Shown here: one piece after another, positions 2,030 through 19,102 of the stretch
Layout: every line of letters begins with the position of its first letter
How positions within the stretch are numbered: position 1 is the first letter of the stretch
NCBI GenBank assembly: GCA_035633255.1
Contig: DASQFD010000018.1
Coordinates: 1 to 24,000 of the forward strand
Source: Dermatophilaceae bacterium
GTDB taxonomy: Bacteria; Actinomycetota; Actinomycetes; Actinomycetales; Dermatophilaceae
Direction of reading: 5' to 3'
Length of the DNA stretch: 24,000 bases
Translations under genes and position numbers: made by a program
Notes under the pieces: model-generated
Told to the model about the DNA's origin: nothing
Databases searched by the model: none
The model's input: only the letters and a program-made list of their open reading frames with translations

Positions 2030-2090
2030 GGGGCCACTCTGGCACGGCCGGGATGAGGACACACCGGCGCCGGCGTCCTACCGTGGGCCT

Positions 2091-4610: not shown

Positions 4611-4711
4611 CCGCGCGACGTGGTGCCCCGCCGACTCCGCCCGGGGTCGAGGTGATGCGCGGCGCGGCGCAGTAGGGTCGGTGACCTCGACGTCGGGCAG
4701 GAGGGGAGCGG

Positions 4712-5761
4712 ATGCGCACCACCGAGCGCGGTCGACGGCGCCCGCCCCTGACCGACACGCACGTCACGCTCGCGCACGGGGCAGGGGGCAAGTCCTCGGC
4801 CGCGCTGACCGAGGCGGTCTTCCTCCCGGCGTTCGGCAACCCGGCCCTGGACCTGCTCGGTGACAGCGCCGTCCTCGACGTCGCCTCGGGCGTGCGGCTC
4901 GCCTTCTCCACCGACTCCTACGTCGTCTCCCCGATCCGCTTTCCCGGCGGGTCGATCGGGCACCTCGCGGTGCACGGCACCGTGAACGACCTGGCCGTCG
5001 CGGGCGCCGTGCCGCGGTGGCTGTCGGCGGCGTTCGTCCTGGAGGAGGGCGTCGCCGTCCAGACCCTGCGGGAGGTGGTCGCCGACATGCGCGCCGCGGC
5101 GTCCGACGCCGGGGTGGAGATCGTCGCGGGGGACACCAAGGTGGTCCCCAGGGGCGCGGCGGACCTCCTCTACGTCACGACCGCGGGCGTCGGCGTGGTC
5201 CCGGCAGGGCGTCACCTCGGCGCCCACCTGGTCCGGCCCGGTGACGCGGTCGTGCTCTCGGGGTCGATGGGTCGGCACGGGATGGCGGTCATGCTGGCCC
5301 GCGACGAGCTCGCCATCGAGGCGGACATCACCTCCGACACCGCGGCCCTGAACGGTCTCGTCGAGGCGCTGCTGGCCGCGGTGCCCGGAACCCGCTGGAT
5401 GCGCGACGCCACCCGGGGCGGGGTCGGCACGGTCGCCAACGAGCTGGCCCGCGCGAGCGGCCTCGGCGTCGTCCTGCAGGAGGAGCGGCTCCCCGTGCAG
5501 CCGGTCGTCCGCGGCGCCTGTGACCTGCTCGGGATCGACCCCATCTACGTCGCCAACGAGGGGCTGCTCGTCGCCGTCGTCCCCGCGCCGGACGCCGACG
5601 CTGCGGTGCAGGCCTTGCGCGCCTCCCCCCTCGGCAGCGACGCTGTGGTGGTCGGCGAGGTCGTCGACGGGCCCGCCGGGCTCGTCGCGATGCGCACCAC
5701 GTTCGGCGGGACCCGGCTGGTCGACCTGCTCGTGGGCGACCCACTGCCGCGGATCTGCTGA
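4712..5761 (+). CDS. hypE: Hydrogenase maturation protein HypE (carbamoyl dehydratase)
   Basis: 349 aa. AIR-synthase-like fold motifs (HGAGGK) and the diagnostic C-terminal PRIC. AGGAGG-like RBS upstream. Confidence 0.94.
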   Translation: MRTTERGRRRPPLTDTHVTLAHGAGGKSSAALTEAVFLPAFGNPALDLLGDSAVLDVASGVRLAFSTDSYVVSPIRFPGGSIGHLAVHGTVNDLAVAGAVPRWLSAAFVLEEGVAVQTLREVVADMRAAASDAGVEIVAGDTKVVPRGAADLLYVTTAGVGVVPAGRHLGAHLVRPGDAVVLSGSMGRHGMAVMLARDELAIEADITSDTAALNGLVEALLAAVPGTRWMRDATRGGVGTVANELARASGLGVVLQEERLPVQPVVRGACDLLGIDPIYVANEGLLVAVVPAPDADAAVQALRASPLGSDAVVVGEVVDGPAGLVAMRTTFGGTRLVDLLVGDPLPRIC

Positions 5762-5789
5762 AGCCGGCCCGACGGAAGGGAGGACGCCC

Positions 5790-6077
5790 TTGTGCCTCGG
5801 CATACCCGGCCAGGTCGTCGAGATGACCGACCCGGAGCAGCACCTCGCCACCGTCGACGTCTCCGGCGCCCGACGGGCCGTCAGCGTGCGGCTCCTCGCC
5901 GACGAGGGGGTGGCCGTCGGGGACTGGGTCCTCGTGCACGTGGGCTTCGCCATGGCGAGGATCGACGAGGACGAGGCCGCCGAGACCCTGCGCGCCCTGG
6001 AGCACCTGGGGCAGCTCTACCGGGACGAGGTCGACGCGTTCAGCGCCGCGGTGCCGGAACGGCATACCAGCGCATGA
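5790..6077 (+). CDS. hypC: Hydrogenase assembly chaperone HypC
   Basis: A TTG start at 5790 gives the canonical (M)CLGIPGQVVEM N-terminus, 95 aa. GGAAGGGAGGA RBS upstream. The stop overlaps the hypD ATG (ATGA). Confidence 0.88.
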   Translation: MCLGIPGQVVEMTDPEQHLATVDVSGARRAVSVRLLADEGVAVGDWVLVHVGFAMARIDEDEAAETLRALEHLGQLYRDEVDAFSAAVPERHTSA

Positions 6078-7198
6078 GGTTCGTCGACGAGTTCCGGGAC
6101 CCGGCGGCCGCGCGGGCGCTGGTGGCGGCCATCGAGGCCGTGCCGCTGCCCGGGCCGGTGGCGCTGATGGAGGTGTGCGGGGGGCACACCCACACGATCT
6201 ACCGGCACGGCCTGGAGCACCTGCTGCCCGACACCGTGGAGCTGGTGCACGGGCCCGGCTGCCCGGTGTGCGTCATCCCGACCGGGCGGGTGGACGACGC
6301 CATCTGGCTGGCCGAGCAGCCGGGCGTCGTCCTGACCACCTTCGCCGACATGATGCGGGTGCCCGGCTCGAGCGGCTCCCTCCTCGACGCCAAGGCGCGG
6401 GGCGCCGACGTCCGCTTCGTCTACTCACCGCTCGACGCGCTCCGCCTCGCCGCGCGCAGCCCGGACCGGCACGTCGTGTTCTTCGCCGTCGGCTTCGAGA
6501 CCACGGCCCCGTCCACGGCCGTGACGCTGCTGCAGGCCCGCGCCCTCGGGGTGGAGAACTTCTCGGTGTTCTCCAACCACGTGACGATCGGGCCGCCGCT
6601 GGAGGCCATCCTCGACGCGGCCGAGGTGCGGCTCGACGGCTTCCTCGGCCCCGGCCACGTCGCCACGGTCACCGGGCTCGACGTCTTCGAGCCGATCGTG
6701 CGGGAGCACCACGTCCCGCTCGTCGTCGCCGGCTTCGAGCCGCTCGACATCCTCTCCGCCGTCCACATGCTGCTCGTGCAGGTCGCCGAGGGGCGCGCGG
6801 AGGTCGGCAACCAGTACGGCCGCGTGGTGCGACGCGAGGGCAACCCGGAGGCACTGCGCCTGATGGCCCAGACGCTCGCGCTGAGGGACGCCTTCGAGTG
6901 GCGCGGCCTCGGCGACATCCCCCGCTCGGGCCTGAGGGTCCACCCCGACTTCGCGACGTGGGACACCGAGCGCCGCTTCGACGTGCCGGGCCTGCGGGTC
7001 GCCGACCACCGCGCGTGCCAGTGCGGGTCGGTGCTGCGCGGGGTGATCAAGCCGTGGGAGTGCAAGGTGTTCGGCAAGGGCTGCGCTCCCGAGCGTCCGC
7101 TGGGCACCTGCATGGTCTCCCCGGAGGGCGCGTGCGCGGCCTACTACACCTTCGGCCGGACGAGCAACGACGCCGCCGGCCTCCTGGCGCGTCGATGA
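6074..7198 (+). CDS. hypD: Hydrogenase maturation Fe-S protein HypD
   Basis: 374 aa from the ATG at 6074 (MRFVDEFRD). Motifs CGGHTH, GPGCPVCV, FETTAP and C-terminal cysteines. The longer ORF-track start at 5792 is an out-of-context extension across hypC. Confidence 0.94.
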   Translation: MRFVDEFRDPAAARALVAAIEAVPLPGPVALMEVCGGHTHTIYRHGLEHLLPDTVELVHGPGCPVCVIPTGRVDDAIWLAEQPGVVLTTFADMMRVPGSSGSLLDAKARGADVRFVYSPLDALRLAARSPDRHVVFFAVGFETTAPSTAVTLLQARALGVENFSVFSNHVTIGPPLEAILDAAEVRLDGFLGPGHVATVTGLDVFEPIVREHHVPLVVAGFEPLDILSAVHMLLVQVAEGRAEVGNQYGRVVRREGNPEALRLMAQTLALRDAFEWRGLGDIPRSGLRVHPDFATWDTERRFDVPGLRVADHRACQCGSVLRGVIKPWECKVFGKGCAPERPLGTCMVSPEGACAAYYTFGRTSNDAAGLLARR

Positions 7199-7291
7199 CG
7201 CCGTTCGTCGCAGTCGGAGGACCGCAGCCACACGTCACACCCCCGGTGGGGTGCGGGTTCGGGGCGCCGGGCGTAGCGTTCCCGGACATCG

Positions 7292-7309
7292 ACAGACGCG
7301 CCCTTCACC
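7292..7309 (+). terminator. Short perfect hairpin downstream of hypD (possible hyp/hox inter-operon terminator or attenuator)
   Basis: GCCCTTC-ACCC-GAAGGGC, a 7-bp perfect stem with a 4-nt loop, about 95 nt after the hypD stop and about 80 nt before hoxF. There is no T-tract. Confidence 0.3.
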
Positions 7310-7390
7310 CGAAGGGCTGACTCACCCGCCACCGGGCAGCGCAGCACCGGGCTGCCCCGTCGTGGCGCCAACGCGACGGAGGCCGTCGGT

Positions 7391-9202
7391 ATGGGCATCG
7401 ACGCGGCACGGCTCCTCGACCGCCACGGGCACGACCGCACGCGCCTTCTCGACATGCTGTGGGAGGTGCAGCGCGCCGAGGGCCACCTGCCCCAACCGGT
7501 CGTCGAGGAGCTCGCCGCGGGGCTCGGCACCACCGCCGGCGACATCCACGAGACGGCGTCGTTCTACCACTTCTTCCACGACGAGCCGGGCGGCCGGCAC
7601 CGGGTCTACCTCGCCGACACCGTAGTCGCCAAGATGCGCGGGTATGCCGACGTGCGCGCCGCCCTGGAGCGCGAGACCGGGGCGTGCTTCGGTGGCCCGC
7701 CCGACCCCACCGGGACCTTCTCGCTGCACGACACCCCGTGCATCGGCCTCTCCGACCAGGAGCCGGCGATGCTCGTCGACGAGGTCGTCTTCACGAGGCT
7801 CCGGCCGGGGAAGGTCGCCGACATCGTCGGCCAGCTGCGGGCCGGGCTCACCGCCGAGGAGGTGGCCAACCCGGTCGGGCTCCCTCGGGACGAGGTGGCC
7901 TACGTCGACAACCTCGTCGAGACCAACGTGCGGACCAAGGGGCCGGTCTTCTTCCGCTACCCCGCGGACTACCGCATGCTCCTGCGGGACTGCCTGGTCC
8001 TGACCCCCGAGCAGATCACCGAGCGGATCTCCGAGTCCGGCCTGCGGGGGCGGGGCGGCGCCGGCTTCTCCACGGGCCTGAAGTGGCAGCTGTGCCGGTC
8101 GGCATACGGGGACCGGAAGTACGTGATCTGCAACGCCGACGAGGGGGAGCCCGGCACCTTCAAGGACCGCGTCCTGCTCACCCGGTCGCCCAAGCAGGTC
8201 TTCACCGGCATGGTCATCGCCGCCTACGCGATCGGCGCCAGCGGGGGGCTGGTCTACCTGCGGGCCGAGTACGCCTACCTCCAGCCCTATCTGGAGCGGC
8301 AGCTGGAGGAGATGCGCGCGGACGGCCTGCTCGGCCACGACATCCTCGGGCGGGCGCCCTTCGACTTCGACATCCGCATCCAGCTCGGCGCCGGCGCCTA
8401 CGTCTGCGGTGAGGAGTCGGCGCTGATCGAGTCGTGCGAGGGCAAGCGGGGCACCCCTCGGCTCAAGCCGCCCTTCCCGGCCCAGCAGGGCTACCTCGGG
8501 CAGCCGACGTGCATCGACAACGTGGAGTCGTTCGGGACGATCACCCGGATCCTCGAGGAGGGGCCGGGATGGTTCCGGGCGATGGGCACGGCGGACTCGG
8601 CCGGGACCCGACTGATAAGCGTCGCCGGTGACGCCCGCAAGCCGGGGGTCTACGAGGTGGAGTGGGGGACCACGCTGGCGGAGGCGCTGGCCCTGGTCGG
8701 AGCGGAGGACGCGCGCGCCGTGCAGGTCGCCGGCCCGTCCGGGGAGTGCGTGTCGCCGGAGCTCGATGGCGAACGCCGCCTCGCGTTCGAGGACCTGAGC
8801 TGCAACGGGGCCTTCACCGTCTTCGGCCGCGACCGGGACCTGCTGCGGGTGGTCCGCGACTACGTCAAGTTCTTCGCCGACGAGTCGTGCGGCATCTGCG
8901 TGCCGTGCCGGGTCGGCAACACCGAGCTGCTGCACAAGGTGGACCTCTTCCTCGCCGGGCGGGCGAGCGAGCCCGACGTGGAGGACCTGCGGCGGTGGAG
9001 CGCGATCATCCGCGGCGCCAGCCGGTGCGGGCTGGGCGCGACGTCGCCCAAGCCGGTGCTCACCACGCTGTCGAGGTTCCCCGAGATCTACCGGGAGCGG
9101 ATGGCCGCCGGGGGCGGCCCGCTGCTGCCGGCATACGACCTGGCGGGCCAGCTGGCCGGCTACGACGCCGCGATCCGGGAGCTGGAGGGGGAGCTGCGAT
9201 GA
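7391..9202 (+). CDS. hoxF: NAD-reducing hydrogenase diaphorase subunit HoxF (NuoE-like N-terminus fused to a NuoF-like FMN/NAD module)
   Basis: 603 aa. NuoF motifs GLRGRGGAGFSTGLKW, CNADEGEPGTFKDR and ESCGICVPCRVG. In the N-terminal thioredoxin-like NuoE-type domain only one of the four usual 2Fe-2S cysteine positions is kept (VYLADTVVAKM, CIGLSD). GGAGG RBS. Confidence 0.9.
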   Translation: MGIDAARLLDRHGHDRTRLLDMLWEVQRAEGHLPQPVVEELAAGLGTTAGDIHETASFYHFFHDEPGGRHRVYLADTVVAKMRGYADVRAALERETGACFGGPPDPTGTFSLHDTPCIGLSDQEPAMLVDEVVFTRLRPGKVADIVGQLRAGLTAEEVANPVGLPRDEVAYVDNLVETNVRTKGPVFFRYPADYRMLLRDCLVLTPEQITERISESGLRGRGGAGFSTGLKWQLCRSAYGDRKYVICNADEGEPGTFKDRVLLTRSPKQVFTGMVIAAYAIGASGGLVYLRAEYAYLQPYLERQLEEMRADGLLGHDILGRAPFDFDIRIQLGAGAYVCGEESALIESCEGKRGTPRLKPPFPAQQGYLGQPTCIDNVESFGTITRILEEGPGWFRAMGTADSAGTRLISVAGDARKPGVYEVEWGTTLAEALALVGAEDARAVQVAGPSGECVSPELDGERRLAFEDLSCNGAFTVFGRDRDLLRVVRDYVKFFADESCGICVPCRVGNTELLHKVDLFLAGRASEPDVEDLRRWSAIIRGASRCGLGATSPKPVLTTLSRFPEIYRERMAAGGGPLLPAYDLAGQLAGYDAAIRELEGELR

Positions 9203-9903
9203 CCATCCAGATCAGCATCGACGGCGAGGTCGTCACGACGAGCGCCGGCAAGGCCGTCGTCGACGTCGCCGCCGCGCACGGCACCTACGTCCCGACGCTC
9301 TGCTACCACCCCGGGCACGCCTGCCTGGGCACCTGCCGCGTGTGCACGGTCCGGGTCAACGGCGCCATGGTCGCGTCCTGCACCCTGGAGGCGCGCGACG
9401 GCATGGTCGTGGAGGTGGACACCCCCGAGCTGCGGGACACCCGGCAGGCCCTGGTGGAGATGCTCTTCGTCGACGGCATCCACAACTGCCCCAGCTGCGA
9501 GAAGAGCGGCCGCTGCACCCTGCAGGCGCTGGGCATCGAGATGAGCCTGGAGAAGCCGCGCTTCCCGTACCGCTACCCCGCCCGGGAGGCCCAGCACGGC
9601 GCCGCGGAGCTGTGGCTGGAGCGCGACCGGTGCATCTTCTGCCAGCGGTGCGTGGAGTTCGTGCGCGACGCGGAGACCGGGCGCAAGGTCTTCAGCATCT
9701 ACGGGCGCGGGGAGAAGGCCCGGATCGAGATGGACGAGGACCTCGCCGACGCGATGACCCCCGAGCAGGTCGACGAGGCGGTGGCCCTGTGCCCCGTGGG
9801 GGCGATCCTGCACAAGGGGGTCGGCTACGACACACCGATCGGCAGGCGACGCTACGAGACCGTCTCGCTGAAGGACCGCGTTCTCGGGCGGAGGCCGTCA
9901 TGA
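9199..9903 (+). CDS. hoxU: NAD-reducing hydrogenase Fe-S subunit HoxU (NuoG N-terminal-like)
   Basis: 234 aa. 2Fe-2S ferredoxin-type N-terminus (CYHPGHACLGTCRVCTV...SC). HNCPSCEKSGRC, CIFCQRCVEF and CPVGA cluster motifs. ATGA overlap with hoxF. Confidence 0.88.
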   Translation: MTIQISIDGEVVTTSAGKAVVDVAAAHGTYVPTLCYHPGHACLGTCRVCTVRVNGAMVASCTLEARDGMVVEVDTPELRDTRQALVEMLFVDGIHNCPSCEKSGRCTLQALGIEMSLEKPRFPYRYPAREAQHGAAELWLERDRCIFCQRCVEFVRDAETGRKVFSIYGRGEKARIEMDEDLADAMTPEQVDEAVALCPVGAILHKGVGYDTPIGRRRYETVSLKDRVLGRRPS

Positions 9904-10565
9904 CCGAACCGGCTCACCTCTCCGGGCACTCCTCCTCCTCCCCCTCCTCCTCGGGCGAGGAGGCCTCGCACGACCTGCCCCGCACCGCCGTCGCCCCGGG
10001 GACCGCGGCCGCCCGCGACGGCAAGATCAAGATGGCGACGATCTCGCTCGCCGGGTGCTGGGGCTGCAACCTCAGCCTCCTCGACCTCGACGAGCGCATC
10101 CTGCCGCTGCTGGACAAGGTGACGATCACCCGCAGCTCGTTCACCGACATCAAGCGCATCACCGAGCGGTGCACCGTCGGCTTCGTCGAGGGGGGCGTCG
10201 CCAACGAGGAGAACATCGAGACCCTCGAGCACTTCCGCGAGAACTGCGACCTGCTCATCGAGGTCGGCGCCTGTGCCATCTGGGGCGGGATCCCCTCGCT
10301 GCGCAACGCGGTCGGGCTCACGGCCTGCCTGCGGGAGGCCTACGTGGACAGCCCGACCCGCCCGGCCGGGTCGCTGCCGGTCATCCCGCGCCACGAGGAC
10401 ATCCCGGTCCTGACCACGCAGGTCAGGCCCTGTCACGAGGTCGTCCACATGGACTACTTCATCACCGGCTGCCCACCCGACGGCAACCAGATCTTCTCGG
10501 TGCTCGACGACCTGGCGAACGGACGCCCGGTCAACCTGCCCACCGCGATCACGCGGTACGACTGA
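9900..10565 (+). CDS. hoxY: [NiFe] hydrogenase small subunit HoxY, with a roughly 44-aa Ser-rich N-terminal extension
   Basis: The core begins KIKMATISLAGCWGCNLSLLD and includes GACAIWGG and GCPP motifs. An ATGA overlap with the hoxU stop and high GC3 through 9900-10030 favour the upstream ATG. An alternative start is the internal Met just before ATISLAG. Confidence 0.82.
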   Translation: MTEPAHLSGHSSSSPSSSGEEASHDLPRTAVAPGTAAARDGKIKMATISLAGCWGCNLSLLDLDERILPLLDKVTITRSSFTDIKRITERCTVGFVEGGVANEENIETLEHFRENCDLLIEVGACAIWGGIPSLRNAVGLTACLREAYVDSPTRPAGSLPVIPRHEDIPVLTTQVRPCHEVVHMDYFITGCPPDGNQIFSVLDDLANGRPVNLPTAITRYD

Positions 10566-10604
10566 CGTGGTCGCCCCCCGTCCGACGGACCTCCCGGAGG
10601 AGCC

Positions 10605-12074
10605 ATGAGCCGCAAGCTCGTCATCGACCCCGTCACCCGCATCGAGGGTCACGGGAAGGTCGTCGTGCACCTCGACGACGACAACCAGGTGTCCGACGCC
10701 CGGCTGCACGTCGTGGAGTTCCGGGGCTACGAGCGCTTCGTCCAGGGACACCCGTACTGGGAGGCGCCGGTCCTGCTGCAGCGGATCTGCGGGATCTGCT
10801 TCGTCAGCCACCACCTCGCGGGCGCCAAGGCGATCGACGACGTGGTCGGGGCCGGCGTGAACGCGCCGACCGGGATCCCCGTCGCCGCGGAGAAGATGCG
10901 CCGGCTGGGCCACTACGCGCAGATGCTGCAGTCGCACGCCACGGCGTACTTCTACCTCGTGGTCCCGGAGATGCTCTTCGGGATGGACGCGCCGCCCGAG
11001 CAGCGCAACGTCCTCGGTCTCATCGAGGCCGACCCGGGGCTGGTCACCCGGGTGGTGATGCTGCGCAAGTGGGGCCAGGAGATCATCCAGACCGTCTTCG
11101 GCAAGCGGATGCACGGGATCTCCGCCATCCCGGGTGGGGTGCAGAAGGGCCTGACCATCGCGGAGCGCGACCGCTTCCTCAACGGCGACGAGGGCATACC
11201 GTCCATGGCGCAGGTCATGGAGTACGCGCAGGACGGGCTGAGGGTCTGGCACGACTTCCACGAGAAGCACCGCGCGGAGGTGGACTCCTTCGCCGTCGTG
11301 CCCGCCCTGTCGATGTCGCTGGTCGGCGACGACGGCAACGTCGACTACTACCACGGCCGGCTCCGGGTGACCGACGAGCACAAGCGGGTGGTCGACGACT
11401 TCGACTACCACGACTACCTCGACCACTTCTCCGAAGGCGTGGAGCCGTGGAGCTACATGAAGTTCCCGTTCCTGAAGAAGCTGGGGCGCGAGCAGGGCTC
11501 GGTGCGGGTCGGCACCCTGGCCCGGATGAACGTCACCGAGACGCTGCCGACCAAGTTCGCCGCCGACGCGCTCGACCGCTTCCACGGGTACACCCACGGC
11601 GAGGCGAACCTCGCGACGCTGCACTCGAACTGGGCGCGCGCCATCGAGATCATCCACGCCGCCGAGCTCATCGAGGAGCTGCTGCGCGACCCCGACCTGC
11701 AGAGCGAGGACCTGGTCACCGACCCGGGCCCGAGCGGGTGGACCGGTGAGGGGGTCGGCGTGGTCGAGGCACCCCGCGGGACGCTGCTGCACCACTACCG
11801 CGCCGACGCGGACGGGGCGATGACCTTCGCCAACCTCATCGTGGCCACGACCCAGAACAACGAGGTGCTCAACCGGACGGTGCGGGCGGTCGCCGAGGAG
11901 CAGCTCACCGGGAAGGTCGAGGTCACCGAGGGGATGATGAACGCCATCGAGGTAGGGCTGCGGGCCTACGACCCGTGCCTGAGCTGCGCCACGCACGCCC
12001 TGGGCCAGATGCCGCTCGTCGTCACCGTGGTGGACGCCGCGGGGGACGTCGTCGCCGAGCGGGTGCGCTCGTGA
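10605..12074 (+). CDS. hoxH: [NiFe] hydrogenase large subunit HoxH (group 3d type)
   Basis: 489 aa. N-terminal ligand motif RICGICFVSHHLAG. C-terminal DPCLSCATH followed by a 25-aa extension (ALGQMPLVV...), the substrate for the maturation protease. GGAGGAG RBS. Confidence 0.94.
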   Translation: MSRKLVIDPVTRIEGHGKVVVHLDDDNQVSDARLHVVEFRGYERFVQGHPYWEAPVLLQRICGICFVSHHLAGAKAIDDVVGAGVNAPTGIPVAAEKMRRLGHYAQMLQSHATAYFYLVVPEMLFGMDAPPEQRNVLGLIEADPGLVTRVVMLRKWGQEIIQTVFGKRMHGISAIPGGVQKGLTIAERDRFLNGDEGIPSMAQVMEYAQDGLRVWHDFHEKHRAEVDSFAVVPALSMSLVGDDGNVDYYHGRLRVTDEHKRVVDDFDYHDYLDHFSEGVEPWSYMKFPFLKKLGREQGSVRVGTLARMNVTETLPTKFAADALDRFHGYTHGEANLATLHSNWARAIEIIHAAELIEELLRDPDLQSEDLVTDPGPSGWTGEGVGVVEAPRGTLLHHYRADADGAMTFANLIVATTQNNEVLNRTVRAVAEEQLTGKVEVTEGMMNAIEVGLRAYDPCLSCATHALGQMPLVVTVVDAAGDVVAERVRS

Positions 12075-12625
12075 GTGCGCCCGCGCCCGCGCTCGGGACC
12101 CGGCTCTCCGGCTACGACGACCCGACGTGCCTGGTGGTCGGCGTGGGCAACGTCGGGCGCGAGGACGACGGGCTCGGCTGGGCGTTCGTCGACCGGCTCG
12201 AGGAGACCGGCGCCTGCGCTCGTGCCGAGGTGGTGCAGCGCTACCAGCTGCTGCTCGAGGACGCGGACCTGTTCTCCCGCTTCGAGCGGGTGCTCGTGGT
12301 GGACGCGACCCGGGACGCCGGCGTGACGGCATACGGGGTGCAGGTCCCGGAGCCACGGCTGGACGTGACGTTCACCTCGCACGCGATGTCGGTGCCGTGC
12401 GTGCTGGCCACGACGGCGACCTGCTTCGGCCGGGTGCCGCAGGTGGAGGTGCTGGCGATCCGCGGCTACTCCTGGGACCTGTGCACCGGGCTGACCGATC
12501 AGGCCGCGGCCAACCTGGACGCGGCCCTGGACGCCCTGGGGTGTCCGCCCCCCGGCACCGGGCGGCCCGGCCGGCCCGGCCGGACTGACCGTGACGTACC
12601 CGCTCTCGGCGCGTGTGGAGGATGA
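12071..12625 (+). CDS. hoxW: Hydrogenase maturation endopeptidase HoxW
   Basis: A GTG at 12071 overlaps the hoxH stop (GTGA). VVGVGNVGREDDGLGW motif, later VVDA and a conserved His region. 184 aa. Confidence 0.85.
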   Translation: MSAPAPALGTRLSGYDDPTCLVVGVGNVGREDDGLGWAFVDRLEETGACARAEVVQRYQLLLEDADLFSRFERVLVVDATRDAGVTAYGVQVPEPRLDVTFTSHAMSVPCVLATTATCFGRVPQVEVLAIRGYSWDLCTGLTDQAAANLDAALDALGCPPPGTGRPGRPGRTDRDVPALGACGG

Positions 12626-12627
12626 GG

Positions 12628-13128
12628 ATGGACGAGAAGACGTTCGACCGGGTCGCGACGACCATCTACGAGGCCCCCCTGGGCACCTACATCGGGCGGG
12701 AGGGCGCGGAGGTGCTCGCCGAGTTCGCCGGCGAGGAGGTGACCCTGACCGACAAGGAGTTCCTCTTCCACCAGGGCGAGTTCGCGCGGACGTTCTACAT
12801 CGTCACCGGCGGGCGGCTCGCCTTCGTGCGCGAGGCGACGGCCAGCAAGCCCGAGGTCATCATCCACGTCCTGGAGAAGGGCGACCTCTGCGGTGAGATG
12901 AGCTTCATCGACGGTGGTGAGTACACCGTGTCGTGCTGTGCGCTGGGCCCGGCAGCGGTCCTGTCCTTCCGCGTCGGTGACCTCTCGCCGCTGGTGGAGA
13001 AGCACCCACGCGTCCTCTATGACTTCATGCGGGCGGTCATCGCCCGGGCCCACTCGACGAGCGCGTCGCTGAGCCGGCAGCGCCAGGAGCTCGCCGACTT
13101 CATCGCCACCGGAGGCAAGCGCGGCTGA
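12628..13128 (+). CDS. hoxI: Cyclic-nucleotide-binding-domain protein in the HoxI position of the SH operon
   Basis: 166 aa from the ATG at 12628; a GGAGGA lies 5 nt upstream, and GTG 12613 or ATG 12622 are alternatives. cNMP-binding fold signatures are FLFHQGEFARTFYIVTGGRL and GDLCGEMSF, with no HTH. It sits directly after hoxW, as hoxI does in the R. eutropha hoxFUYHWI operon. Confidence 0.75.
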   Translation: MDEKTFDRVATTIYEAPLGTYIGREGAEVLAEFAGEEVTLTDKEFLFHQGEFARTFYIVTGGRLAFVREATASKPEVIIHVLEKGDLCGEMSFIDGGEYTVSCCALGPAAVLSFRVGDLSPLVEKHPRVLYDFMRAVIARAHSTSASLSRQRQELADFIATGGKRG

Positions 13129-13158
13129 CGCGCGCCACCGGCATGCCACCATCGTGGC

Positions 13159-14133
13159 GTGGAGGACATGTCGGTCGGTGAGATGGCGGGACGCCTCGGT
13201 GTCACGCCGTCCACCGTGCGGATGTGGGGCACGCGGTACGGACTGCACGCCTCGGCGCGCAGTGCCGGGGGGCATCGCCGGTACACCGCCGCGGACGTCG
13301 ACCGCCTGCAGCAGATGCAGGAGCTGGTCAACAGGGGGGTCGACCCGGCCGAGGCGGCGGCCCGCGCGCTCGCCGCGGGCGGCGCCGCGGGTCCCGGGGG
13401 CGCCGCGGGTCCCGAGGGGACCACGGGTCCCGGGCGGTCCGCGGGCCCCGGGCGACCGGGCGGGCCGGGCGGTTCGGTGCTCGCCGTCCCCGGCGCCGAC
13501 TGCCGCGTCCGCGGGCTGGCCAGGGCCGCCAGCCGCCTCCAGGACGGTGAGGTCACCGCCATCGTGAGCGCCGCCCTGCGCGAAGAAGGCGCCGCCGCCA
13601 CCTGGACCGGGCTGGTGGTGCCGGTGCTCGTCGCCGCCGGGGAGCACTGGGAGCGGGGCGGCACCGGCATCGAGGTCGAGCACCTGCTGACCTCCGCCGT
13701 GTCGGTCGCCTTCACCGGCTACGTGTCCGGCCTCCCCGAAATTGCACAAGATCGGCCCGTGGTGCTGGCGGGGGGGCCGAACGAGGACCACGTCCTCACG
13801 CTCCACGCGGTCCGCTCGGCGCTGGCCGAGCGAGGCGTGCCGGTCCGGTTCCTCGGGCCGCGGACGCCGCTCGGGGCGCTCACGGCGACGGCCCGCCTGA
13901 CCAGGACGCCGGCGGTGCTGATCTGGGCCAGCCTGGCGGATTCCGAGGCGGCAGACGGGCTGGCGGAGCTGCGGGCGGCTCACCGGCGGTTGCTGCTGCT
14001 CGTCGCGGGACCCGGCTGGACCGGCCTGGACACCGCGCCGGCCACGGTCTGCACCAGCCTGGACGACGCGGTCGCCCGGTTGGGCGGGGCCTGGGGGCGG
14101 CGGCTCGGCGGCGCTGCCGAACGTGACGAATGA
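13159..14133 (+). CDS. MerR-family HTH plus B12-binding-domain regulator (CarH/LitR-type candidate light sensor)
   Basis: N-terminal MerR HTH (SVGEMAGRLGVTPSTVRMWGTRYGL...RRYTAADV). Gly/Pro repeat linker. Helical bundle with an exact W-x9-EH motif (HWERGGTGIEVEHLL). Rossmann-like B12 domain with E-D-H (VVLAGGPNEDHVLTLHAV), LGPRTPL and LLLVAGPGW. The start may instead be the ATG at 13168. Confidence 0.85.
   Translation: MEDMSVGEMAGRLGVTPSTVRMWGTRYGLHASARSAGGHRRYTAADVDRLQQMQELVNRGVDPAEAAARALAAGGAAGPGGAAGPEGTTGPGRSAGPGRPGGPGGSVLAVPGADCRVRGLARAASRLQDGEVTAIVSAALREEGAAATWTGLVVPVLVAAGEHWERGGTGIEVEHLLTSAVSVAFTGYVSGLPEIAQDRPVVLAGGPNEDHVLTLHAVRSALAERGVPVRFLGPRTPLGALTATARLTRTPAVLIWASLADSEAADGLAELRAAHRRLLLLVAGPGWTGLDTAPATVCTSLDDAVARLGGAWGRRLGGAAERDE
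13381..13470 (+). repeat. 18-bp tandem repeat (about 5 units) encoding a (G-A-A-G-P-G)-like linker in the regulator
   Basis: The units are GGCGCCGCGGGTCCCGGG / GGCGCCGCGGGTCCCGAG / GGGACCACGGGTCCCGGG / CGGTCCGCGGGCCCCGGG / CGACCGGGCGGGCCGGGC. They encode GAAGPG GAAGPE GTTGPG RSAGPG RPGGPG. Confidence 0.85.
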
Positions 14134-14153
14134 AACTTGCACAAGTCTTGACC
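14134..14153 (+). promoter_or_regulatory. Candidate operator plus -35 element of the rhodopsin promoter
   Basis: An AT-rich island sits right after the regulator stop. The inverted repeat ACTTG-CA-CAAGT (14135-14146) abuts TTGACC (14148-14153). The 11-mer AACTTGCACAA fits the nAnnTnnACAn repeat pattern that I recall for CarH operators. I could not find a convincing -10 hexamer. Confidence 0.4.
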
Positions 14154-14254
14154 TGACCCCAGCCGGAGGCGTCTACTGGGAGGGCTTCCGCACCCTCGGG
14201 AGCGCTCTCGACGGCCGCCATGCACGCATCGGCGCCTCAAGGCCAGGAGTCCGC

Positions 14255-15193
14255 ATGAACGACGACCAGTCGGCAGTCAACATCCCCTCGCTCACGGCCG
14301 GCCAGTTCGACATCGTCTACAACCTGTTGTCGCTGACCATCGCCTCGATGCTCTTCACCGCCCTCTACCTCGTGCTCTCCCAGCGCCGGGTCGCGCCTCG
14401 CTACCGGAACGCGGTCGTCGTCTCCGCCATCGTGTGTGGCATCGCCGCGTACCACTACTTCCGGATCTTCCAGAACTTCAAGGAGAGCTACCCACCGGGG
14501 GAGGGGGTCACGTCCGACCACCAGCTCTCGAACGTCGTCTTCAACGAGGCCTACCGCTATGTCGACTGGCTGCTCACCGTGCCACTGCTTCTCGTCGAGA
14601 CCGTCGCGGTGATGGCCCTGGCTCGTGCCGCCCAGCGCTCCCTGCTGGTCAAGCTCATCCCGGCGGCCGTCGCGATGATCCTGCTCGGCTACCCCGGTGA
14701 GGTCGCGACGACCAACACCGCACGGCTGATCTGGGGCTTCCTCGCGACCCTGCCCTTCATCTACATCGTCTACGTGCTCTTCGTGGAGCTGTCGCGGTCC
14801 CTGGACCGGCAGCCTCCCGAGGTCCGGCGGGTCGCCAAGCTGCTGCCGGTCACCCTCGTCGCGCTCTGGTCCGTCTACCCGGTCGCCTACCTCTTCCCGG
14901 TCTTCGGCGGGGACTTCTTCGGGGGCGCGGACGGGTTCGTCCTCCGCCAGGCCGGCTACAGCATCGCCGACATCCTCGCCAAGGCCGCGTTCGGGCTGCT
15001 GATCTTCTACGTCGCCCGGGTCCAGAGCCGACTGGACGACACGGCCTACGACGACGACCACTCGGTGACCGGGCACACCTCCCCGGCCACGAGCAACGGC
15101 TCCAGCGGTGACGCCTCCATCGGGAGCGCTGCCACCGGTGTGCCGGTCGGCGAGGTCACCGGCGCGCAGGCGTCCGCGGTGGGCCGGTCATGA
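14255..15193 (+). CDS. Microbial (type-1) rhodopsin, proteorhodopsin/xanthorhodopsin-like DTE proton-pump type
   Basis: 312 aa from the ATG at 14255, with an AGGAG RBS. There are seven hydrophobic helices. Helix C reads RYVDWLLTVPLLLVE (D, T, E at the BR 85/89/96-equivalent positions, with Leu at the PR-105 tuning position). Helix B has the AAYHYF His, helix F has LWSVYPVAY, and helix G has SIADILAKAAFG (D-x3-K Schiff-base lysine). The C-terminal tail is about 50 aa and rich in Ser/Gly/Asp. Confidence 0.92.
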   Translation: MNDDQSAVNIPSLTAGQFDIVYNLLSLTIASMLFTALYLVLSQRRVAPRYRNAVVVSAIVCGIAAYHYFRIFQNFKESYPPGEGVTSDHQLSNVVFNEAYRYVDWLLTVPLLLVETVAVMALARAAQRSLLVKLIPAAVAMILLGYPGEVATTNTARLIWGFLATLPFIYIVYVLFVELSRSLDRQPPEVRRVAKLLPVTLVALWSVYPVAYLFPVFGGDFFGGADGFVLRQAGYSIADILAKAAFGLLIFYVARVQSRLDDTAYDDDHSVTGHTSPATSNGSSGDASIGSAATGVPVGEVTGAQASAVGRS

Positions 15194-15678
15194 GTGCCGT
15201 GTCCTCGCAGCTGCCACCGCTCGACCTGCCCGCCGGCTCCCCCGTCGGCCTCGAGGACGGCGGAGGCTCGCCGCAGAAGCCCTTCTACGACCTGACGGTC
15301 CGACTGCTGGGCCACGTCCGGGACCACGACCTGCCGGCGCTGGCCGCCCTGTGCGACGACGACTTCGGGATCGTCGAGATCACCACCACGGGTGGATCGC
15401 TGGTCATCCGCGACCGGGCGGGCTGGGAGGCCTGGTTCGGCGGGCTGTTCGCCCAGCTCGACGCCATGCAGGCACGCACGTGGTCGGAGGTCACCGGTTA
15501 CGAGGCGGTGGTGAGCGGCGACATGGGCTACAGCGTCGTCGACTTCCACCAGATGCTGGTGACCGAGGAGGAGTCGCTGCGCTTCACCGTGATCGCCACC
15601 ATCATCTGGAAGCGCGTCGACGGCGGCTGGAGGGAGTCCCGCTACCACAGCTCCCTCCTCGGGGTGGAGCCCGTCTGA
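15190..15678 (+). CDS. NTF2-like (SnoaL/DUF4440-type) protein, translationally coupled to the rhodopsin
   Basis: 162 aa. The ATG at 15190 overlaps the rhodopsin TGA (ATGA). After a roughly 30-aa disordered N-terminus the pattern is typical of NTF2-fold proteins (LCDDDFGIVE...GWEAWFGGLF...VSGDMGYSVVDF...TIIWKRVDGGWRESRYHSS). Confidence 0.75.
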   Translation: MSAVSSQLPPLDLPAGSPVGLEDGGGSPQKPFYDLTVRLLGHVRDHDLPALAALCDDDFGIVEITTTGGSLVIRDRAGWEAWFGGLFAQLDAMQARTWSEVTGYEAVVSGDMGYSVVDFHQMLVTEEESLRFTVIATIIWKRVDGGWRESRYHSSLLGVEPV

Positions 15679-15717
15679 CCCACGCCTGACGTCGCTCTGA
15701 CCTCGGTCTGACCGGGA
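15674..15717 (+). repeat. Four tandem 11-bp direct repeats with core (T/C)CTGAC(C/G)
   Basis: The units are TCTGACCCACG (15674), CCTGACGTCGC (15685), TCTGACCTCGG (15696) and TCTGACCGGGA (15707), spaced exactly 11 bp apart. Unit 1 contains the stop codon of the NTF2-like gene. Unit 4 runs into the left arm of the terminator stem. Confidence 0.85.
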
Positions 15718-15750
15718 GGTCGGGCCCGGACAACCCGGGTCCGACCTCCC
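15714..15750 (+). terminator. Strong GC-rich hairpin ending the hyp/hox/rhodopsin co-directional array
   Basis: GGGAGGTCGGGCCCGG - ACAA - CCCGGGTCCGACCTCCC, a stem of about 16 bp with one mismatch, 36 nt after the last stop codon. There is no U-tract, which is common in high-GC actinobacteria. Confidence 0.65.
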
Positions 15751-16025
15751 GTTCCGCGCTCGCCCCTGGCGACTGAGCCGTGGCCGTGCCCCGTTCGGTC
15801 GTCGTAGCACGGGACGGGCCGGAAAGGGAGATTAGAGTCGGGTTGACCCGATCTGACTTCCCGGTCGGCGACGGGCGAAGGTAGTGGAACGCAGAGACGC
15901 GCCAAGCACCTTGTTGCGGCGCGAGAGCGATGCCGACGACTGCGTGGCACTGCTCATGGTCCAGCAAGGGGCCCTCGCGTCCGGGCCGATCCGGCCATCC
16001 GATCCACATCTCTAGGGGTATTTCC

Positions 16026-16312
16026 TTGTCCTTCTCCACCATCGACGACACCACCACCAACGACCGTTCGGTCCGCACCCACGGTGACGAGACGCGCCCG
16101 GCGCGCAAGACCACCGAGCTCATCGCCTACGTGGTGGCCGTGCTCGCGGTGGCCCTGACCGCACTGGTCGTGGGCGACGAGGCGACAACACCGCCGACCC
16201 GTTCAGCGCCGAGCAGGCCATGCGCTACATCGCCTACCTCACCATCGGCTACATGGTCGCGCGCGGCCTGGCCAAGTCCGGCAGCCGCGGTCGGGTCAGC
16301 GACGACGCCTGA
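16026..16312 (+). pseudogene. Small two-helix membrane protein gene with an apparent 1-nt frameshift
   Basis: A TTG at 16026 gives (M)SFSTIDDTTTNDRSVRTHGDETRPARKTTELIAYVVAVLAVALTALVVGDEA. From about 16184 the high-GC3 coding signal moves to another frame: DNTADPFSAEQAMRYIAYLTIGYMVARGLAKSGSRGRVSDDA, with a stop at 16310-16312. The total length is 287 nt (3n-1). The switch lies in the direct repeat GGCGACGAGGCGAC. Confidence 0.55.
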
Positions 16313-16543
16313 GCCTCGGCTCACCACCGGAGGGATCTCCGGTAGGACAGCGACAGCGCCCCCCTCCCCTTCGGGAGTGGGGGCGCCGTGCTGTCCGGAA
16401 CGGGCGGCCGGCGACCCACGACGCGGGGGGCCGACACCGCGGACCGCGGGGTATGCCGTGCCGTGCCCTTCCGTTTGCGCGCCGGGTCCAGCGGTGGTTC
16501 GGTGGGGTCCATCCCCGGTCCGACCCGCGAGGAAGTGGCGTCC

Positions 16544-19102
16544 ATGAGGACACGGCACACGGCATACCCGCTCAGGACGCTCGGGGGGCTGGCCCTCACG
16601 GCGGTGACCGCGGCCGCGTTGGTGGCCGCGCCGACGGCGGGTGCCCAGCCGTCCGCGGTCCCGCGAGGCGGCGTCGACGCGCAGGGGACGGCCGGGTGCG
16701 ACCCCTTCTCGGAGCCGGCGCTCGACGCCCGGGTGCCCACGGCTCGGGACGTCCTGGGACTCGACCTCGGTGACCGGGACGTCACGACGGCCGAGTCGGA
16801 CGCGTACCTGCAGGCGCTCGCGGCCGCGAGCCCCATGGTGACCGACGGTGTGCTCGCGACCTCGGTGCGCGGGCGGCCCCTGCGGTATGCCGTGGTGGGC
16901 CAGCAGAAGTGGGTCACCGAGGCCGGGCTGGCCCGGATCGGGCGCGATGTCGGGCGGCTGCGGGACGCCCGCACCCCGGAGGCGCAGGCCCGGCAGATCA
17001 TCCGGTCCATGCCGTCGATCCTGTGGGTGGCCGGGAACGTCCACGGGGGCGAGGAGAGCGGCACCGACGCCTCGCTGCGGGTGCTCTACGAGCTGGCCGC
17101 GAGGACCGACTGCGCGGCGCAGGAGATCCTCGACGACGCGATCGTCGTCGTGCTGCCGACGCAGAACCCCGACGGTCGCGAGGCCGACACCCGGCGCAAC
17201 GCGTACGGCTTCGACATGAACCGCGACTGGTTCGCGCGCACGCAGCCGGAGACCGACGGGAAGCTGGAGCTGCTGCGGCGGCTCCCCCCGCAGGTCTTCG
17301 TCGACGCGCACGAGATGGGGCGAGCGACGTTCTTCTTCCCGCCGAACGCCGACCCCGTCTACCACGACATCGGCGAGACCCCCCTGAGCTGGATCTACGA
17401 CCGGATCGGGCCGTCGATCCAGTCCTCGTTCGGCCGGTTCTCGATCCCCTACTTCAACGGAGACGTCTACGACCTCTTCTACATGGGGTACGGCGACACC
17501 GTCCCGACGACGGGCTTCAACGCGGCCGGGATGACGTTCGAGAAGGCGAACGGCGACCCGACGCCGCAGCGGGTGCGGGAGCAGTACGTCGCGATCTGGA
17601 GCACCCTCAGCACGATGGGTGCCAAGGACGACGCGCTGCTGACCGAGTGGCGGGCCGAGCACCGGACGGCATACCAGCAGGGCGTGCAGGGCAAGCTCGA
17701 GCCCAACCAGCTCTACTGGGAGGGCGCGGCCGTCGAGAACCAGGTGCCGGACGCCCCGGTCAGGCACTACTTCCTCGAGACCTCCGACCCGGCGAAGGCC
17801 GACGAGGCGCAGCGCGTCGCGCGACGGCTGCAGCGCATGGACGTCGACGTCTTCCGGCTGGTGCGGCCGCTGACGGTGCCGGACTACACGCCCTATGGAC
17901 GGCCCAGCGGGACGCGGACGCTGCCGGTCGGCACGTTGTGGGTGCCGATGGCGCAGGGGCAGAAGCACTGGGTGCAGGCGATGCTGAACGAGGACACCTA
18001 CGTGCCGTTCCCGTACTTCTACGACGTGACGGCGTGGAGCGCGCCGCTGCTGGAGAACGTGCCGGGCGGGCGCTCCGGCGCCGAGCTGCGGCCGCAGGCG
18101 GTGGCGCTGGCCCAGCAGGCCGAGCCGGACGTCACGATGCAGGGGGACGCGGCGCCGCGGGTCGCGGTGTGGCAGATCTCCGCCACGTCGGGCGGATCGA
18201 TCGAGTCGGCGGGCTGGCTGCGCTGGTGGCTCGACAAGCGGGCGGGGCTGGAGCACGCGGACGTCACGGCGGGGCGGATCGCCGGCGGGGCGCTGGCCGA
18301 CGTGGACGTGCTGGTGGTGCCGAGCGGGTCCGACTCGACGGCCGACACCGCCCTGGGCGCGGCGGGCCGGGCCGCCCTCACCTCGTGGGTGCGGGACGGC
18401 GGGCGGTTGGTCATGCTCCGCGACAGCTCCCGCCTGGCCACCCGGCTCGGCCTGACGTCGGCGACCTTCGCCGACGCCACGTCGGACATCCCCGGGTCGC
18501 TCGTGCGGGTCGAGGTCGACCCGGCCAGCCCCCTCGCCGCCGGGGTGGGTGACACCGCCTACGCGATGTACGAGTACGACTTCGTGTGGACGGCGCCGGA
18601 GGCGTCCTCGCCGGTGCGCTACCCCGCGGCGGGGGACCCCGACTGGTTCGTCTCCGGCTTCGCGGCCGGCGAGGAGCAGCTGAAGGGGACGTCCGCCGTC
18701 GTCGACGAGAAGCTGGGTCAGGGCCGGGTCGTGCTGTTCGGCTTCGACCCGAACTACCGCGCGTTCACCAACGGCACGGCGCAGCTGCTGCGCAACGCCA
18801 TCACCGGCCCGGCACCGTCCGACGCGCCGACGGCGCGGGTGACGGCACCCGGGGCGGCCACGGCGGCGTCGGTGGAGGCGTCCGGCCGGATGGTGCTGAG
18901 CGTGCGCCCGGGCGCGGCGGGCCGGGTCGAGGCGCTGCTGCGGGCCCGCGGCGCCCAGTCTGACGTCGTGCGGTCGCCCGGCGTGGTGAGCTACCGGGTG
19001 GACCTCGGTGGCAGGACCGCGGACGAGCACCCGTGGGCCTCGGACCTCGCCGCCGAGGTGGCGGCGCTGGGCAGCGCGGTGGTGGCGGTCCGCCTGCCGT
19101 AG
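16544..19102 (+). CDS. Secreted M14-family zinc metallocarboxypeptidase with a large C-terminal extension
   Basis: 852 aa from the ATG at 16544. Signal peptide MRTRHTAYPLRTLGGLALTAVTAAALVAAPTAGAQP. Zinc and substrate motifs HGGEESG, NPDGRE, GFDMNRDW and DAHEMG. The C-terminal region resembles amidotransferase-like domains (VDVLVVPSGSD...GGRLVML). Confidence 0.85.
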   Translation: MRTRHTAYPLRTLGGLALTAVTAAALVAAPTAGAQPSAVPRGGVDAQGTAGCDPFSEPALDARVPTARDVLGLDLGDRDVTTAESDAYLQALAAASPMVTDGVLATSVRGRPLRYAVVGQQKWVTEAGLARIGRDVGRLRDARTPEAQARQIIRSMPSILWVAGNVHGGEESGTDASLRVLYELAARTDCAAQEILDDAIVVVLPTQNPDGREADTRRNAYGFDMNRDWFARTQPETDGKLELLRRLPPQVFVDAHEMGRATFFFPPNADPVYHDIGETPLSWIYDRIGPSIQSSFGRFSIPYFNGDVYDLFYMGYGDTVPTTGFNAAGMTFEKANGDPTPQRVREQYVAIWSTLSTMGAKDDALLTEWRAEHRTAYQQGVQGKLEPNQLYWEGAAVENQVPDAPVRHYFLETSDPAKADEAQRVARRLQRMDVDVFRLVRPLTVPDYTPYGRPSGTRTLPVGTLWVPMAQGQKHWVQAMLNEDTYVPFPYFYDVTAWSAPLLENVPGGRSGAELRPQAVALAQQAEPDVTMQGDAAPRVAVWQISATSGGSIESAGWLRWWLDKRAGLEHADVTAGRIAGGALADVDVLVVPSGSDSTADTALGAAGRAALTSWVRDGGRLVMLRDSSRLATRLGLTSATFADATSDIPGSLVRVEVDPASPLAAGVGDTAYAMYEYDFVWTAPEASSPVRYPAAGDPDWFVSGFAAGEEQLKGTSAVVDEKLGQGRVVLFGFDPNYRAFTNGTAQLLRNAITGPAPSDAPTARVTAPGAATAASVEASGRMVLSVRPGAAGRVEALLRARGAQSDVVRSPGVVSYRVDLGGRTADEHPWASDLAAEVAALGSAVVAVRLP

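Follow-up and report, generated by a model that had tools for sequence, protein, structure and literature searches.

The stretch of DNA analysed here, referred to as the window, comprises 24 kb of a 72% GC actinobacterium, and proteins identical to those it encodes are on record from a metagenome-assembled genome (MAG) of the Dermatophilaceae. GC content at the third codon position (GC3) was used to separate the real genes from the many spurious open reading frames (ORFs). On the + strand, genes for a cNMP-binding protein, a LitR/CarH-like regulator, a rhodopsin and a small protein of the NTF2 fold follow one another in that order (Table 1), and it is with the last of these, the NTF2-like gene, that this analysis is concerned. 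The locus represents a rhodopsin gene cluster in which the accessory gene is of a new type: the family to which the NTF2-like protein belongs appears to be a compact, undescribed and dedicated genomic partner of retinal-binding, ion-pumping rhodopsins. The genomic link between the two is well supported, and is both unexpected and broad; the biochemical function we infer.

Table 1. Coordinates of the features of the 24 kb window.
Feature	Position	Strand	Details
Xanthorhodopsin-like proton-pump rhodopsin, 312 aa	14255..15193	+	ATG 14255, TGA to 15193; Pfam Bac_rhodopsin E=1.5e-39
ATGA stop/start overlap, rhodopsin-NTF2	15190..15193	+	rhodopsin TGA 15191-15193, NTF2 ATG 15190-15192; read from sequence
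NTF2-like protein, 162 aa, DUF4440/SnoaL_3 type	15190..15678	+	residues 1 to ~29 variable, disordered; 30-162 conserved cone domain
LitR/CarH-like regulator (MerR HTH + B12-binding domain)	13159..14133	+	Pfam MerR_1 1.7e-16, B12-binding_2 2.1e-6; partial NCBIfam CarH match; directly upstream of rhodopsin
cNMP-binding-domain protein	12613..13128	+	Pfam cNMP_binding 4.9e-15; directly upstream of LitR-like gene, same strand
Perfect 17-bp GC-rich hairpin, 5-nt loop	15713..15751	+	35 nt past NTF2 stop codon; no U-tract/T-run
Diaphorase-like Complex1_51K/2Fe-2S subunit	7391-9202		hydrogenase cluster
Oxidored_q6 hydrogenase small subunit	9342-10565		
Hydrogenase large subunit	10605-12074		
Probable hydrogenase maturation protease	11975-12625		without Pfam match

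The window rhodopsin carries a DTE motif, the Schiff-base Lys and a Gly at the fenestration position equivalent to G156 of xanthorhodopsin (XR), the motif columns reading D/T/E, H, L, G, D and K. Its best solved relatives are 9hfk (1e-78), Gloeobacter rhodopsin (GR; 6nwd, 5e-73), psXR, xanthorhodopsin itself (3ddl, 1.5e-61) and Kin4B8. The motif, the lysine, the glycine and these relatives together place it among the xanthorhodopsin-like (XLR) pumps. The protein ends in a low-complexity C-terminal tail of ~55 aa. This tail (approximately 15030-15190 in the window) was also seen in related loci (L001-L011), with a conserved SR(L/I)DDP..YDD and often an RPIPA end immediately ahead of the overlapping NTF2 start. 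Actinobacterial rhodopsins linked to NTF2 measure 299-312 aa, whereas those of a sister clade, in which the gene blh is linked to the rhodopsin instead, measure roughly 275-303 aa.

The NTF2-like ORF has a coding-type composition (GC1/GC2/GC3 = 0.72/0.50/0.92), and the identical database entry, from a Dermatophilaceae MAG, is annotated as an NTF2 family protein. Its product scored above the Pfam gathering threshold with DUF4440 (34.2 vs 25.2 bits) and likewise with SnoaL_3 (32.7 vs 22 bits), while the SnoaL_2 match fell under the cut-off (19.4 vs 27 bits); all Pfam matches belong to the NTF2 clan, bar one sub-threshold match to HVO_2525_N (13.8 vs 27 bits). AlphaFold2 modelled the protein as an NTF2 cone with a mean predicted local distance difference test score (pLDDT) of 83.7, mostly >90 in the core and 70-88 over residues 51-80, with helices at 33-44, 48-54 and 76-92 and six strands. 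A Foldseek search of the PDB gave 438 matches at E <= 1e-3 and an NTF2-fold probability of 1.00, and all of the matches listed were NTF2-fold proteins. The protein has no Pfam match to a membrane-protein family and is predicted to be soluble and cytoplasmic.

These results bear out much of what an initial annotation, made from the letters of the window, had said of the locus. The ATGA overlap is real; the NTF2 fold is upheld by the DUF4440 and SnoaL_3 matches, the AlphaFold2 cone and the Foldseek probability of 1.00; the pump is xanthorhodopsin-like, with its DTE motif, the Gly at position 156 and XR, GR and Kin4B8 among the nearest solved structures; and the lack of blh or crt genes at the NTF2 position holds, none of these families being found among the Pfam matches of the GC3-supported genes of the window.

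Across 134 NTF2-like homologues, 32 residues are >=97% invariant. They include four Trp (W79, W82, W140, W147), further aromatics (F83, F87, Y104, F119, F132) and the polar residues D56-D58, Q121, K141, E149, R151 and H153, and this aromatic and polar set resembles the conservation expected of a ligand site. Homologues from Actinomycetota and Bacteroidota are 55-65% identical to one another. The rhodopsin-linked subfamily carries the signature CDDD[FY]GI[VI]D ... TWSE ... W[KRQ]E[SA]RYH[SG]S, from which the window protein (CDDDFGIVE ... TWSE ... WRESRYHSS) departs once, with E63 for D. When 1.84 billion representatives of clusters at 50% identity were searched with a profile, 113 matched at E <= 1e-3 and only 8 at E <= 1e-30. 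Judged by its sequences, the rhodopsin-linked family is small, sharply bounded and distinct from generic DUF4440 proteins, and no plasmid or phage copies of it were found.

Linkage to rhodopsin was determined in a genome survey, in which one genome was taken per species, the best 80 of 194 relatives' loci were kept and rhodopsin was sought with a hidden Markov model (HMM). A type-1 rhodopsin directly adjoined the NTF2 gene in 60 of these 80 species-representative loci; four of the other 20 were cut by contig ends, and the rest form small subclades nested among rhodopsin-adjacent relatives. A metagenome scan, independent of this survey and seeded with more distant family members, was counted as contigs bearing a gene of the main subfamily: a rhodopsin was adjacent on 39, it was absent on 4 with >=900 bp on both sides, and 12 were undecidable as the flank was too short, which gives adjacency in 39 of 43 assessable contigs. 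Rhodopsin thus stands beside the NTF2 subfamily in about 80-90% of assessable loci, where random adjacency to a gene present one to three times per genome can be put at well below 1%. The phylogenetic profile of subfamily against rhodopsin that the initial annotation had proposed is therefore strongly positive (~80-90% of assessable loci adjacent), and the subfamily was not found, at locus level, to be widespread away from rhodopsin, which is the pattern that had been named as speaking against a link.

The family occurs in Actinomycetota (Actinomycetes and Acidimicrobiia), Bacteroidota and Chloroflexota, and a single Rhodothermales locus carries it without an adjacent rhodopsin. Two cultured isolates have the rhodopsin-NTF2 pair, Hymenobacter latericus (CP110136.1) and Tunicatimonas pelagia (CP120683.1). 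When 1,034 flanking genes were clustered, rhodopsin was the sole neighbour common across phyla, and a Pfam scan of 90 immediate neighbours gave 115 families, each in <=4 loci; no other conserved neighbour was found in the rhodopsin-adjacent loci, nor in those without an adjacent rhodopsin. The two genes were co-directional with rhodopsin upstream in 48 pairs, convergent in 4, divergent in 3 and in reversed order in 2. In ~33 of the 48 same-strand pairs of other genomes, the stop codon of the rhodopsin is overlapped or followed by a start codon at a spacing of -4, -1 or +1 to +3, and tight coupling is therefore the rule across phyla. No description of this linkage was found in a search of 8 million full texts.

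Several further observations concern these loci and the wider family. The rhodopsin next to the NTF2 gene is split over two frames or ORFs in L005, L045, L056 and L075, where the NTF2 gene is intact; this could be assembly error or pseudogenisation. A pair of radical-SAM and DUF4130 genes adjoins the module in Tunicatimonas pelagia (L081 3728-5737) and in four Cytophagales MAGs (L017, L020, L024, L033), and any tie of this pair to light or UV, for example through DNA repair, is speculation. Tandem NTF2 genes occur at L079 9476-11039 and L109 725-1943, the main rhodopsin-linked type (~180 bits) being followed by a distant type (116-129 bits) with a WxEARWHCS motif. Distant-type relatives were also found on three contigs (L084, L086, L087), in whose available flanks there is no rhodopsin, although these data are thin. 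One family representative of 256 aa, P0122, has a ~115-aa hydrophobic and probably membrane-spanning N-terminal extension before its NTF2 domain, which hints that the domain acts at the membrane surface.

Four clades are represented among the partner rhodopsins. The XLR-type DTE pumps belong to Actinomycetota and the proteorhodopsin-like DTE pumps, which have Met as tuning residue, to Bacteroidota; the other two clades are of the NDQ (sodium-pump) type, and occur in MAGs of Bacteroidales and Anaerolineae in one case and in Acidimicrobiia in the other. The motifs of all partners are those of pumps (DTE or NDQ) rather than sensory ones. Rhodopsins of different clades are 20-28% identical; for the NTF2 proteins next to them the figure is 49-62%. 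In the Bacteroidota, the identity between NTF2 proteins that accompany NDQ pumps and those that accompany proteorhodopsin-like pumps is 62%, compared with 64% inside the proteorhodopsin-like group and with 21% for the rhodopsins themselves. As NTF2 similarity there is unaffected by rhodopsin class, the NTF2 gene follows the host lineage and tolerates exchange of its partner. Such interchangeability points to a role tied to a feature common to the pumps, namely the chromophore, and argues against a co-evolving, pump-specific interface.

Two candidate features of the partner rhodopsins were rejected. A conserved C-terminal tail was considered as a docking site, but the tails are not conserved between the rhodopsin groups. 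The residue at XR position 156 is Gly in all assessable partner rhodopsins but two, which have Ala, and this fenestration Gly was considered as a sign of a carotenoid role. Gly is, however, reported to be near-universal in Bacteroidota proteorhodopsins and conserved in many xanthorhodopsin-like, sodium-pump and chloride-pump clades (10.1101/2024.11.08.622755, preprint), so that its presence in the partners does not discriminate.

A reverse test was made with the closest NTF2-less relatives of the window's rhodopsin (n=6), which share 67-72% identity with it; their sources are Dermatophilaceae Soc4.6, Modestobacter, Kineosporia, Motilibacteraceae and two MAGs. In all six, blh (Pfam BCD, beta-carotene dioxygenase) lies immediately 3' of the rhodopsin, and a LitR-like gene lies upstream in five. 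The blh start overlaps the rhodopsin stop in the Modestobacter locus (L152), and crtE- and crtI-like genes come after rhodopsin-blh in another (L156). The window NTF2 gene therefore occupies the slot that holds the retinal synthase in the sister lineage, and this slot gives independent support to a chromophore-related role. The embedding of the NTF2 gene in retinal-rhodopsin operons is the strongest functional clue available. Elsewhere blh is rarely near the NTF2 gene (3 of 151 loci, within the flanks examined). The order is rhodopsin, NTF2 (after a 3-bp gap) and blh in L157, and in L140 crtY-blh is followed by what is probably a divergent LitR-like gene (unannotated; identified by comparison with L136) and then by rhodopsin-NTF2. 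A protein search with the Blh fragment of L044 as query gave one match. With both genes present in L157, L140, L136 and L044, the idea that NTF2 is a strict replacement for Blh was rejected. Locus L152 also has, at 6411-6833 and ~2 kb 3' of its rhodopsin-blh pair, a SnoaL_2 NTF2-like gene that does not match the HMM of the rhodopsin-linked family at E <= 1e-5.

The likeness to the beta-carotene 15,15'-dioxygenase Blh/Brp (Pfam BCD, PF15461) is one of operon position only. Genes for these proteins are linked to retinal-using rhodopsins and, like the NTF2 gene, sit immediately 3' of the rhodopsin, sometimes overlapping it and in actinobacteria behind a LitR-like regulator. Blh is an integral-membrane iron enzyme of ~330 aa with conserved His ligands, unlike the soluble cone of ~135 aa described here, and the two are not homologous: BCD is readily recognised in the sister loci, and the NTF2 protein has no match to it. 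The second comparison is with the C-terminal domain of the orange carotenoid protein (OCP) and its stand-alone homologues (CTDH; Pfam NTF2, PF02136), soluble carotenoid carriers with which the initial annotation had drawn an analogy. The analogy holds at the level of fold class, which is common to both, and goes no further: the NTF2-like protein belongs to the DUF4440/SnoaL_3 subfamily and has no PF02136 match even at E <= 1, and no OCP or CTDH entry was found among its top 50 Foldseek PDB matches. The hosts of the family, unlike those of OCP, are not cyanobacteria, and no genes for an OCP N-terminal domain or a helical carotenoid protein (HCP) were seen in the flanks. In those carriers the carotenoid lies in the cone, where a Tyr/Trp pair hydrogen-bonds its 4-keto group; the NTF2-like protein has many invariant Trp and Tyr residues, which may or may not face its pocket.

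The solved structure most similar in sequence is the association (hub) domain of CaMKII, which forms rings of 12 to 16 subunits, the hub of CaMKII-beta being matched at E = 3.4e-4 in a profile search against the PDB. The W-x6-W-x5-H-x-S motif aligns between the two (W140...W147...H153-x-S155 in the NTF2-like protein), and target-normalised Foldseek TM-scores to the CaMKII hub and bacterial DUF4440-SnoaL_3 group are 0.75-0.81. Of the three arginines of the hub pocket, two align by HMMER to F119 and I138, while the position of the third, which is Cys in the beta-isoform chain that was matched, aligns to S154. For Pfam CaMKII_AD the score is nevertheless under the cut-off (11.7 vs 22.1 bits) and there is no attached kinase domain, and the alignment indicates a distant homology only. 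The fold is likewise common to the BaiE bile-acid 7-alpha-dehydratase, LinA, scytalone dehydratase, SnoaL and ketosteroid isomerase (Foldseek E ~1e-6). Cofactor-free enzymes of this fold use Asp, His and Tyr, and the NTF2-like protein appears to have conserved residues of that kind; they differ from it in being 9-21% identical, and none is known to be linked to a rhodopsin.

A parallel in gene arrangement is ASRT, the Anabaena sensory rhodopsin transducer, a small soluble protein of beta-sandwich fold whose gene follows directly on that of its rhodopsin within one operon. The rhodopsin that ASRT serves is a sensory one, whereas the NTF2-linked partners carry the DTE or NDQ motifs of pumps; the NTF2-like protein has no match to an ASRT-family Pfam entry, and its predicted fold is alpha+beta rather than a beta-sandwich. 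To our knowledge, an accessory role in rhodopsin operons has so far been found only for blh, the crt genes and, with its sensory rhodopsin, ASRT. The initial annotation had held that a soluble accessory of a rhodopsin would be new; given ASRT, such a protein is not entirely without precedent, although it would be new for ion pumps.

The reading that we prefer, and to which we would give a little less than an even chance, is that the NTF2-like protein is a cytoplasmic accessory that handles the chromophore (retinal, a carotenoid or an apocarotenoid) in a binding or chaperone role; here we infer that it binds a ligand, what that ligand is, and that the ligand is delivered to the opsin. In the window, the NTF2 gene is translationally coupled, and would be co-transcribed, with the xanthorhodopsin-like proton pump, from an operon that is probably light-induced, since a LitR/CarH-like regulator lies directly upstream. 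The aromatic-lined pocket of the cone may then take up all-trans-retinal or, instead, a carotenoid or apocarotenoid, the steroid-sized pocket of the NTF2 fold presumably being suited to retinal, and the protein could hold, protect or pass on the pigment during assembly of the holo-rhodopsin. The evidence from the blh slot moves the emphasis towards the supply or handling of retinal, and leaves the analogy to carotenoids and OCP as a lead at the level of the fold.

Several points weigh against this. Strand parity and the CaMKII alignment contradict one another as to whether the invariant residues face the pocket or the outer surface. Both faces of the beta-sheet appear conserved and, with a ring-forming CaMKII hub as relative, an oligomeric or protein-partner role fits equally well. 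Since both the synthesis and the use of retinal and carotenoids take place in the membrane, it is not obvious why a soluble carrier would be needed, and the well-studied pumps xanthorhodopsin, Gloeobacter rhodopsin, KR2 and proteorhodopsin work, as far as is known, without such a protein. At locus level, ~16 genome loci and 4 metagenome loci have adequate flanks and no adjacent rhodopsin. A stronger version would make the family the indispensable third part of a widespread, non-marine photosystem based on rhodopsin: a soluble chaperone or enzyme for retinoids or carotenoids, on which the choice of chromophore or the very maturation of the pump would depend and which, where it replaces blh beside the rhodopsin, would open a blh-independent route to a functional chromophore by scavenging or new chemistry. 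This version seems to us improbable.

The protein may instead be an enzyme that modifies the chromophore or its precursor, with an Asp/His/Tyr set acting on a retinoid or carotenoid as in the cofactor-free dehydratases and isomerases of this fold, for instance by ring dehydration or double-bond isomerisation, to give a different retinal or antenna pigment, and in loci that lack blh an alternative retinal route might involve it. The dehydratases BaiE, LinA and scytalone dehydratase are among the top structural neighbours, the invariant D56-D58, H153, Y104, Q121, K141, E149 and R151 resemble an active-site constellation, an identity of 49-62% across phyla is typical of enzymes that act on a fixed small molecule, and the gene lies in the slot of an enzyme, Blh. 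The SnoaL_2 match is, however, under the Pfam cut-off (19.4 vs 27 bits), we know of no precedent for oxidative cleavage of beta-carotene by a metal-free NTF2 fold, and the co-occurrence of Blh and NTF2 in L157, L140, L136 and L044 means that the protein is no simple replacement of Blh. We regard an enzymatic role as unlikely. The same low standing is given to a direct partner of the pump, possibly an oligomeric, hub-like cytoplasmic protein that docks on the cytoplasmic face of the rhodopsin and aids folding or oligomerisation, controls pumping or relays a light signal as ASRT does. This would agree with the ring-forming CaMKII association domain as closest solved sequence relative (E = 3.4e-4), the conservation apparent on both sheet faces, the hydrophobic and probably membrane-anchoring N-terminal extension of P0122, and the widespread stop/start overlaps, which suggest roughly equimolar synthesis. 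A specific interface would be expected to co-vary, yet the rhodopsins are only 20-28% identical and have no conserved C-terminal tail while the NTF2 protein has barely changed; moreover, one Bacteroidota NTF2 lineage pairs with both H+ and Na+ pump types, and the motifs of all partners are those of pumps and not of sensory rhodopsins. Translational coupling cannot choose among these readings because Blh can be coupled to its rhodopsin in the same way (L152), and it is therefore no argument against an enzyme. For the same reason the coupling from which the initial annotation had read stoichiometric co-expression is no proof of a stoichiometric complex.

It is still less likely that the product is a light or stress protein with no direct role at the rhodopsin, dealing for example with photo-oxidation products, and that it travels along through light regulation and joint transfer. 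Such a role would account for the LitR-type regulator upstream in actinobacterial loci and for the roughly 20% of assessable genome loci in which a well-conserved NTF2 gene is kept without an adjacent rhodopsin, and the radical-SAM and DUF4130 pair beside the module in several Bacteroidota loci might be added, if the DNA-repair reading of that pair were more than speculation. Against it, adjacency outlasts changes in gene order, phylum and rhodopsin class while no other light-related gene is kept, the NTF2 gene stands between rhodopsin and blh in L157, and simple co-regulation rarely keeps 80-90% adjacency with stop/start overlap across phyla. Many long non-coding ORFs overlap the region on both strands, and the gene might on that account have been a spurious ORF of a 72% GC genome. 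This is refuted by its coding-type GC3, the Pfam scores above gathering thresholds, the hundreds of homologues with 32 near-invariant residues and the confident fold prediction, and we give it practically no credence.

Microbial rhodopsin pumps are usually pictured as a minimal photosystem of opsin and retinal, for which blh and crt are the sole accessory genes known. Pumps of differing ion specificity in at least four phyla are accompanied by a small, highly conserved soluble protein, which suggests an unrecognised step in the building of this photosystem or in the supply of its pigment. If the NTF2-like protein does bind or transform retinal or a carotenoid, bacterial rhodopsin pumps would have their first known soluble factor for chromophore handling. 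Such a factor could then explain how some lineages obtain or tune their chromophore, and could make rhodopsins easier to express in heterologous hosts for optogenetics and bioenergetic engineering.

Among L001-L016, every actinobacterial NTF2 locus whose upstream region was available has a LitR/CarH-like homologue 5' of the rhodopsin, which suggests B12-dependent light induction of actinobacterial rhodopsin operons. The regulator is kept 5' of xanthorhodopsin-like genes in actinobacteria both where NTF2 follows and where blh does (L001-L016; L151-L155). No description of such a LitR/CarH-rhodopsin operon was found in a literature search on rhodopsin and LitR. It is uncertain that the cNMP-binding gene belongs to the LitR-rhodopsin-NTF2 unit; it was absent beside the rhodopsin-NTF2 module in the other loci examined.

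Downstream of the NTF2 gene, the hairpin listed in Table 1 is a candidate for the end of the operon. The RNA fold of 15676-15790 has -63 kcal/mol (z = -3.98), and 0 of 200 shuffles fold as well. A consensus promoter and terminator scan of 12400-16500 called nothing, the hairpin being passed over because no T-run follows it. It may serve as a factor-independent terminator of the actinobacterial kind, or else be a repeat element.

All 16 GC3-supported genes of the window were included in a Pfam scan, with the exception of ORF 16388-19102, which was assigned by eye as an M14 peptidase. The families found were those of hydrogenase and maturation genes, the cNMP-binding protein, the LitR/CarH-like regulator, the rhodopsin, the NTF2 gene, an RNase J and a LuxR-type regulator; ORF 11975-12625 had no Pfam match. 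Directly 5' of the light-regulated unit, window positions 847-12625 hold a complete NiFe hydrogenase cluster of the NAD-linked type, which in addition to the subunits in Table 1 includes the maturation genes hypA, hypB, hypF, hypE and hypD.

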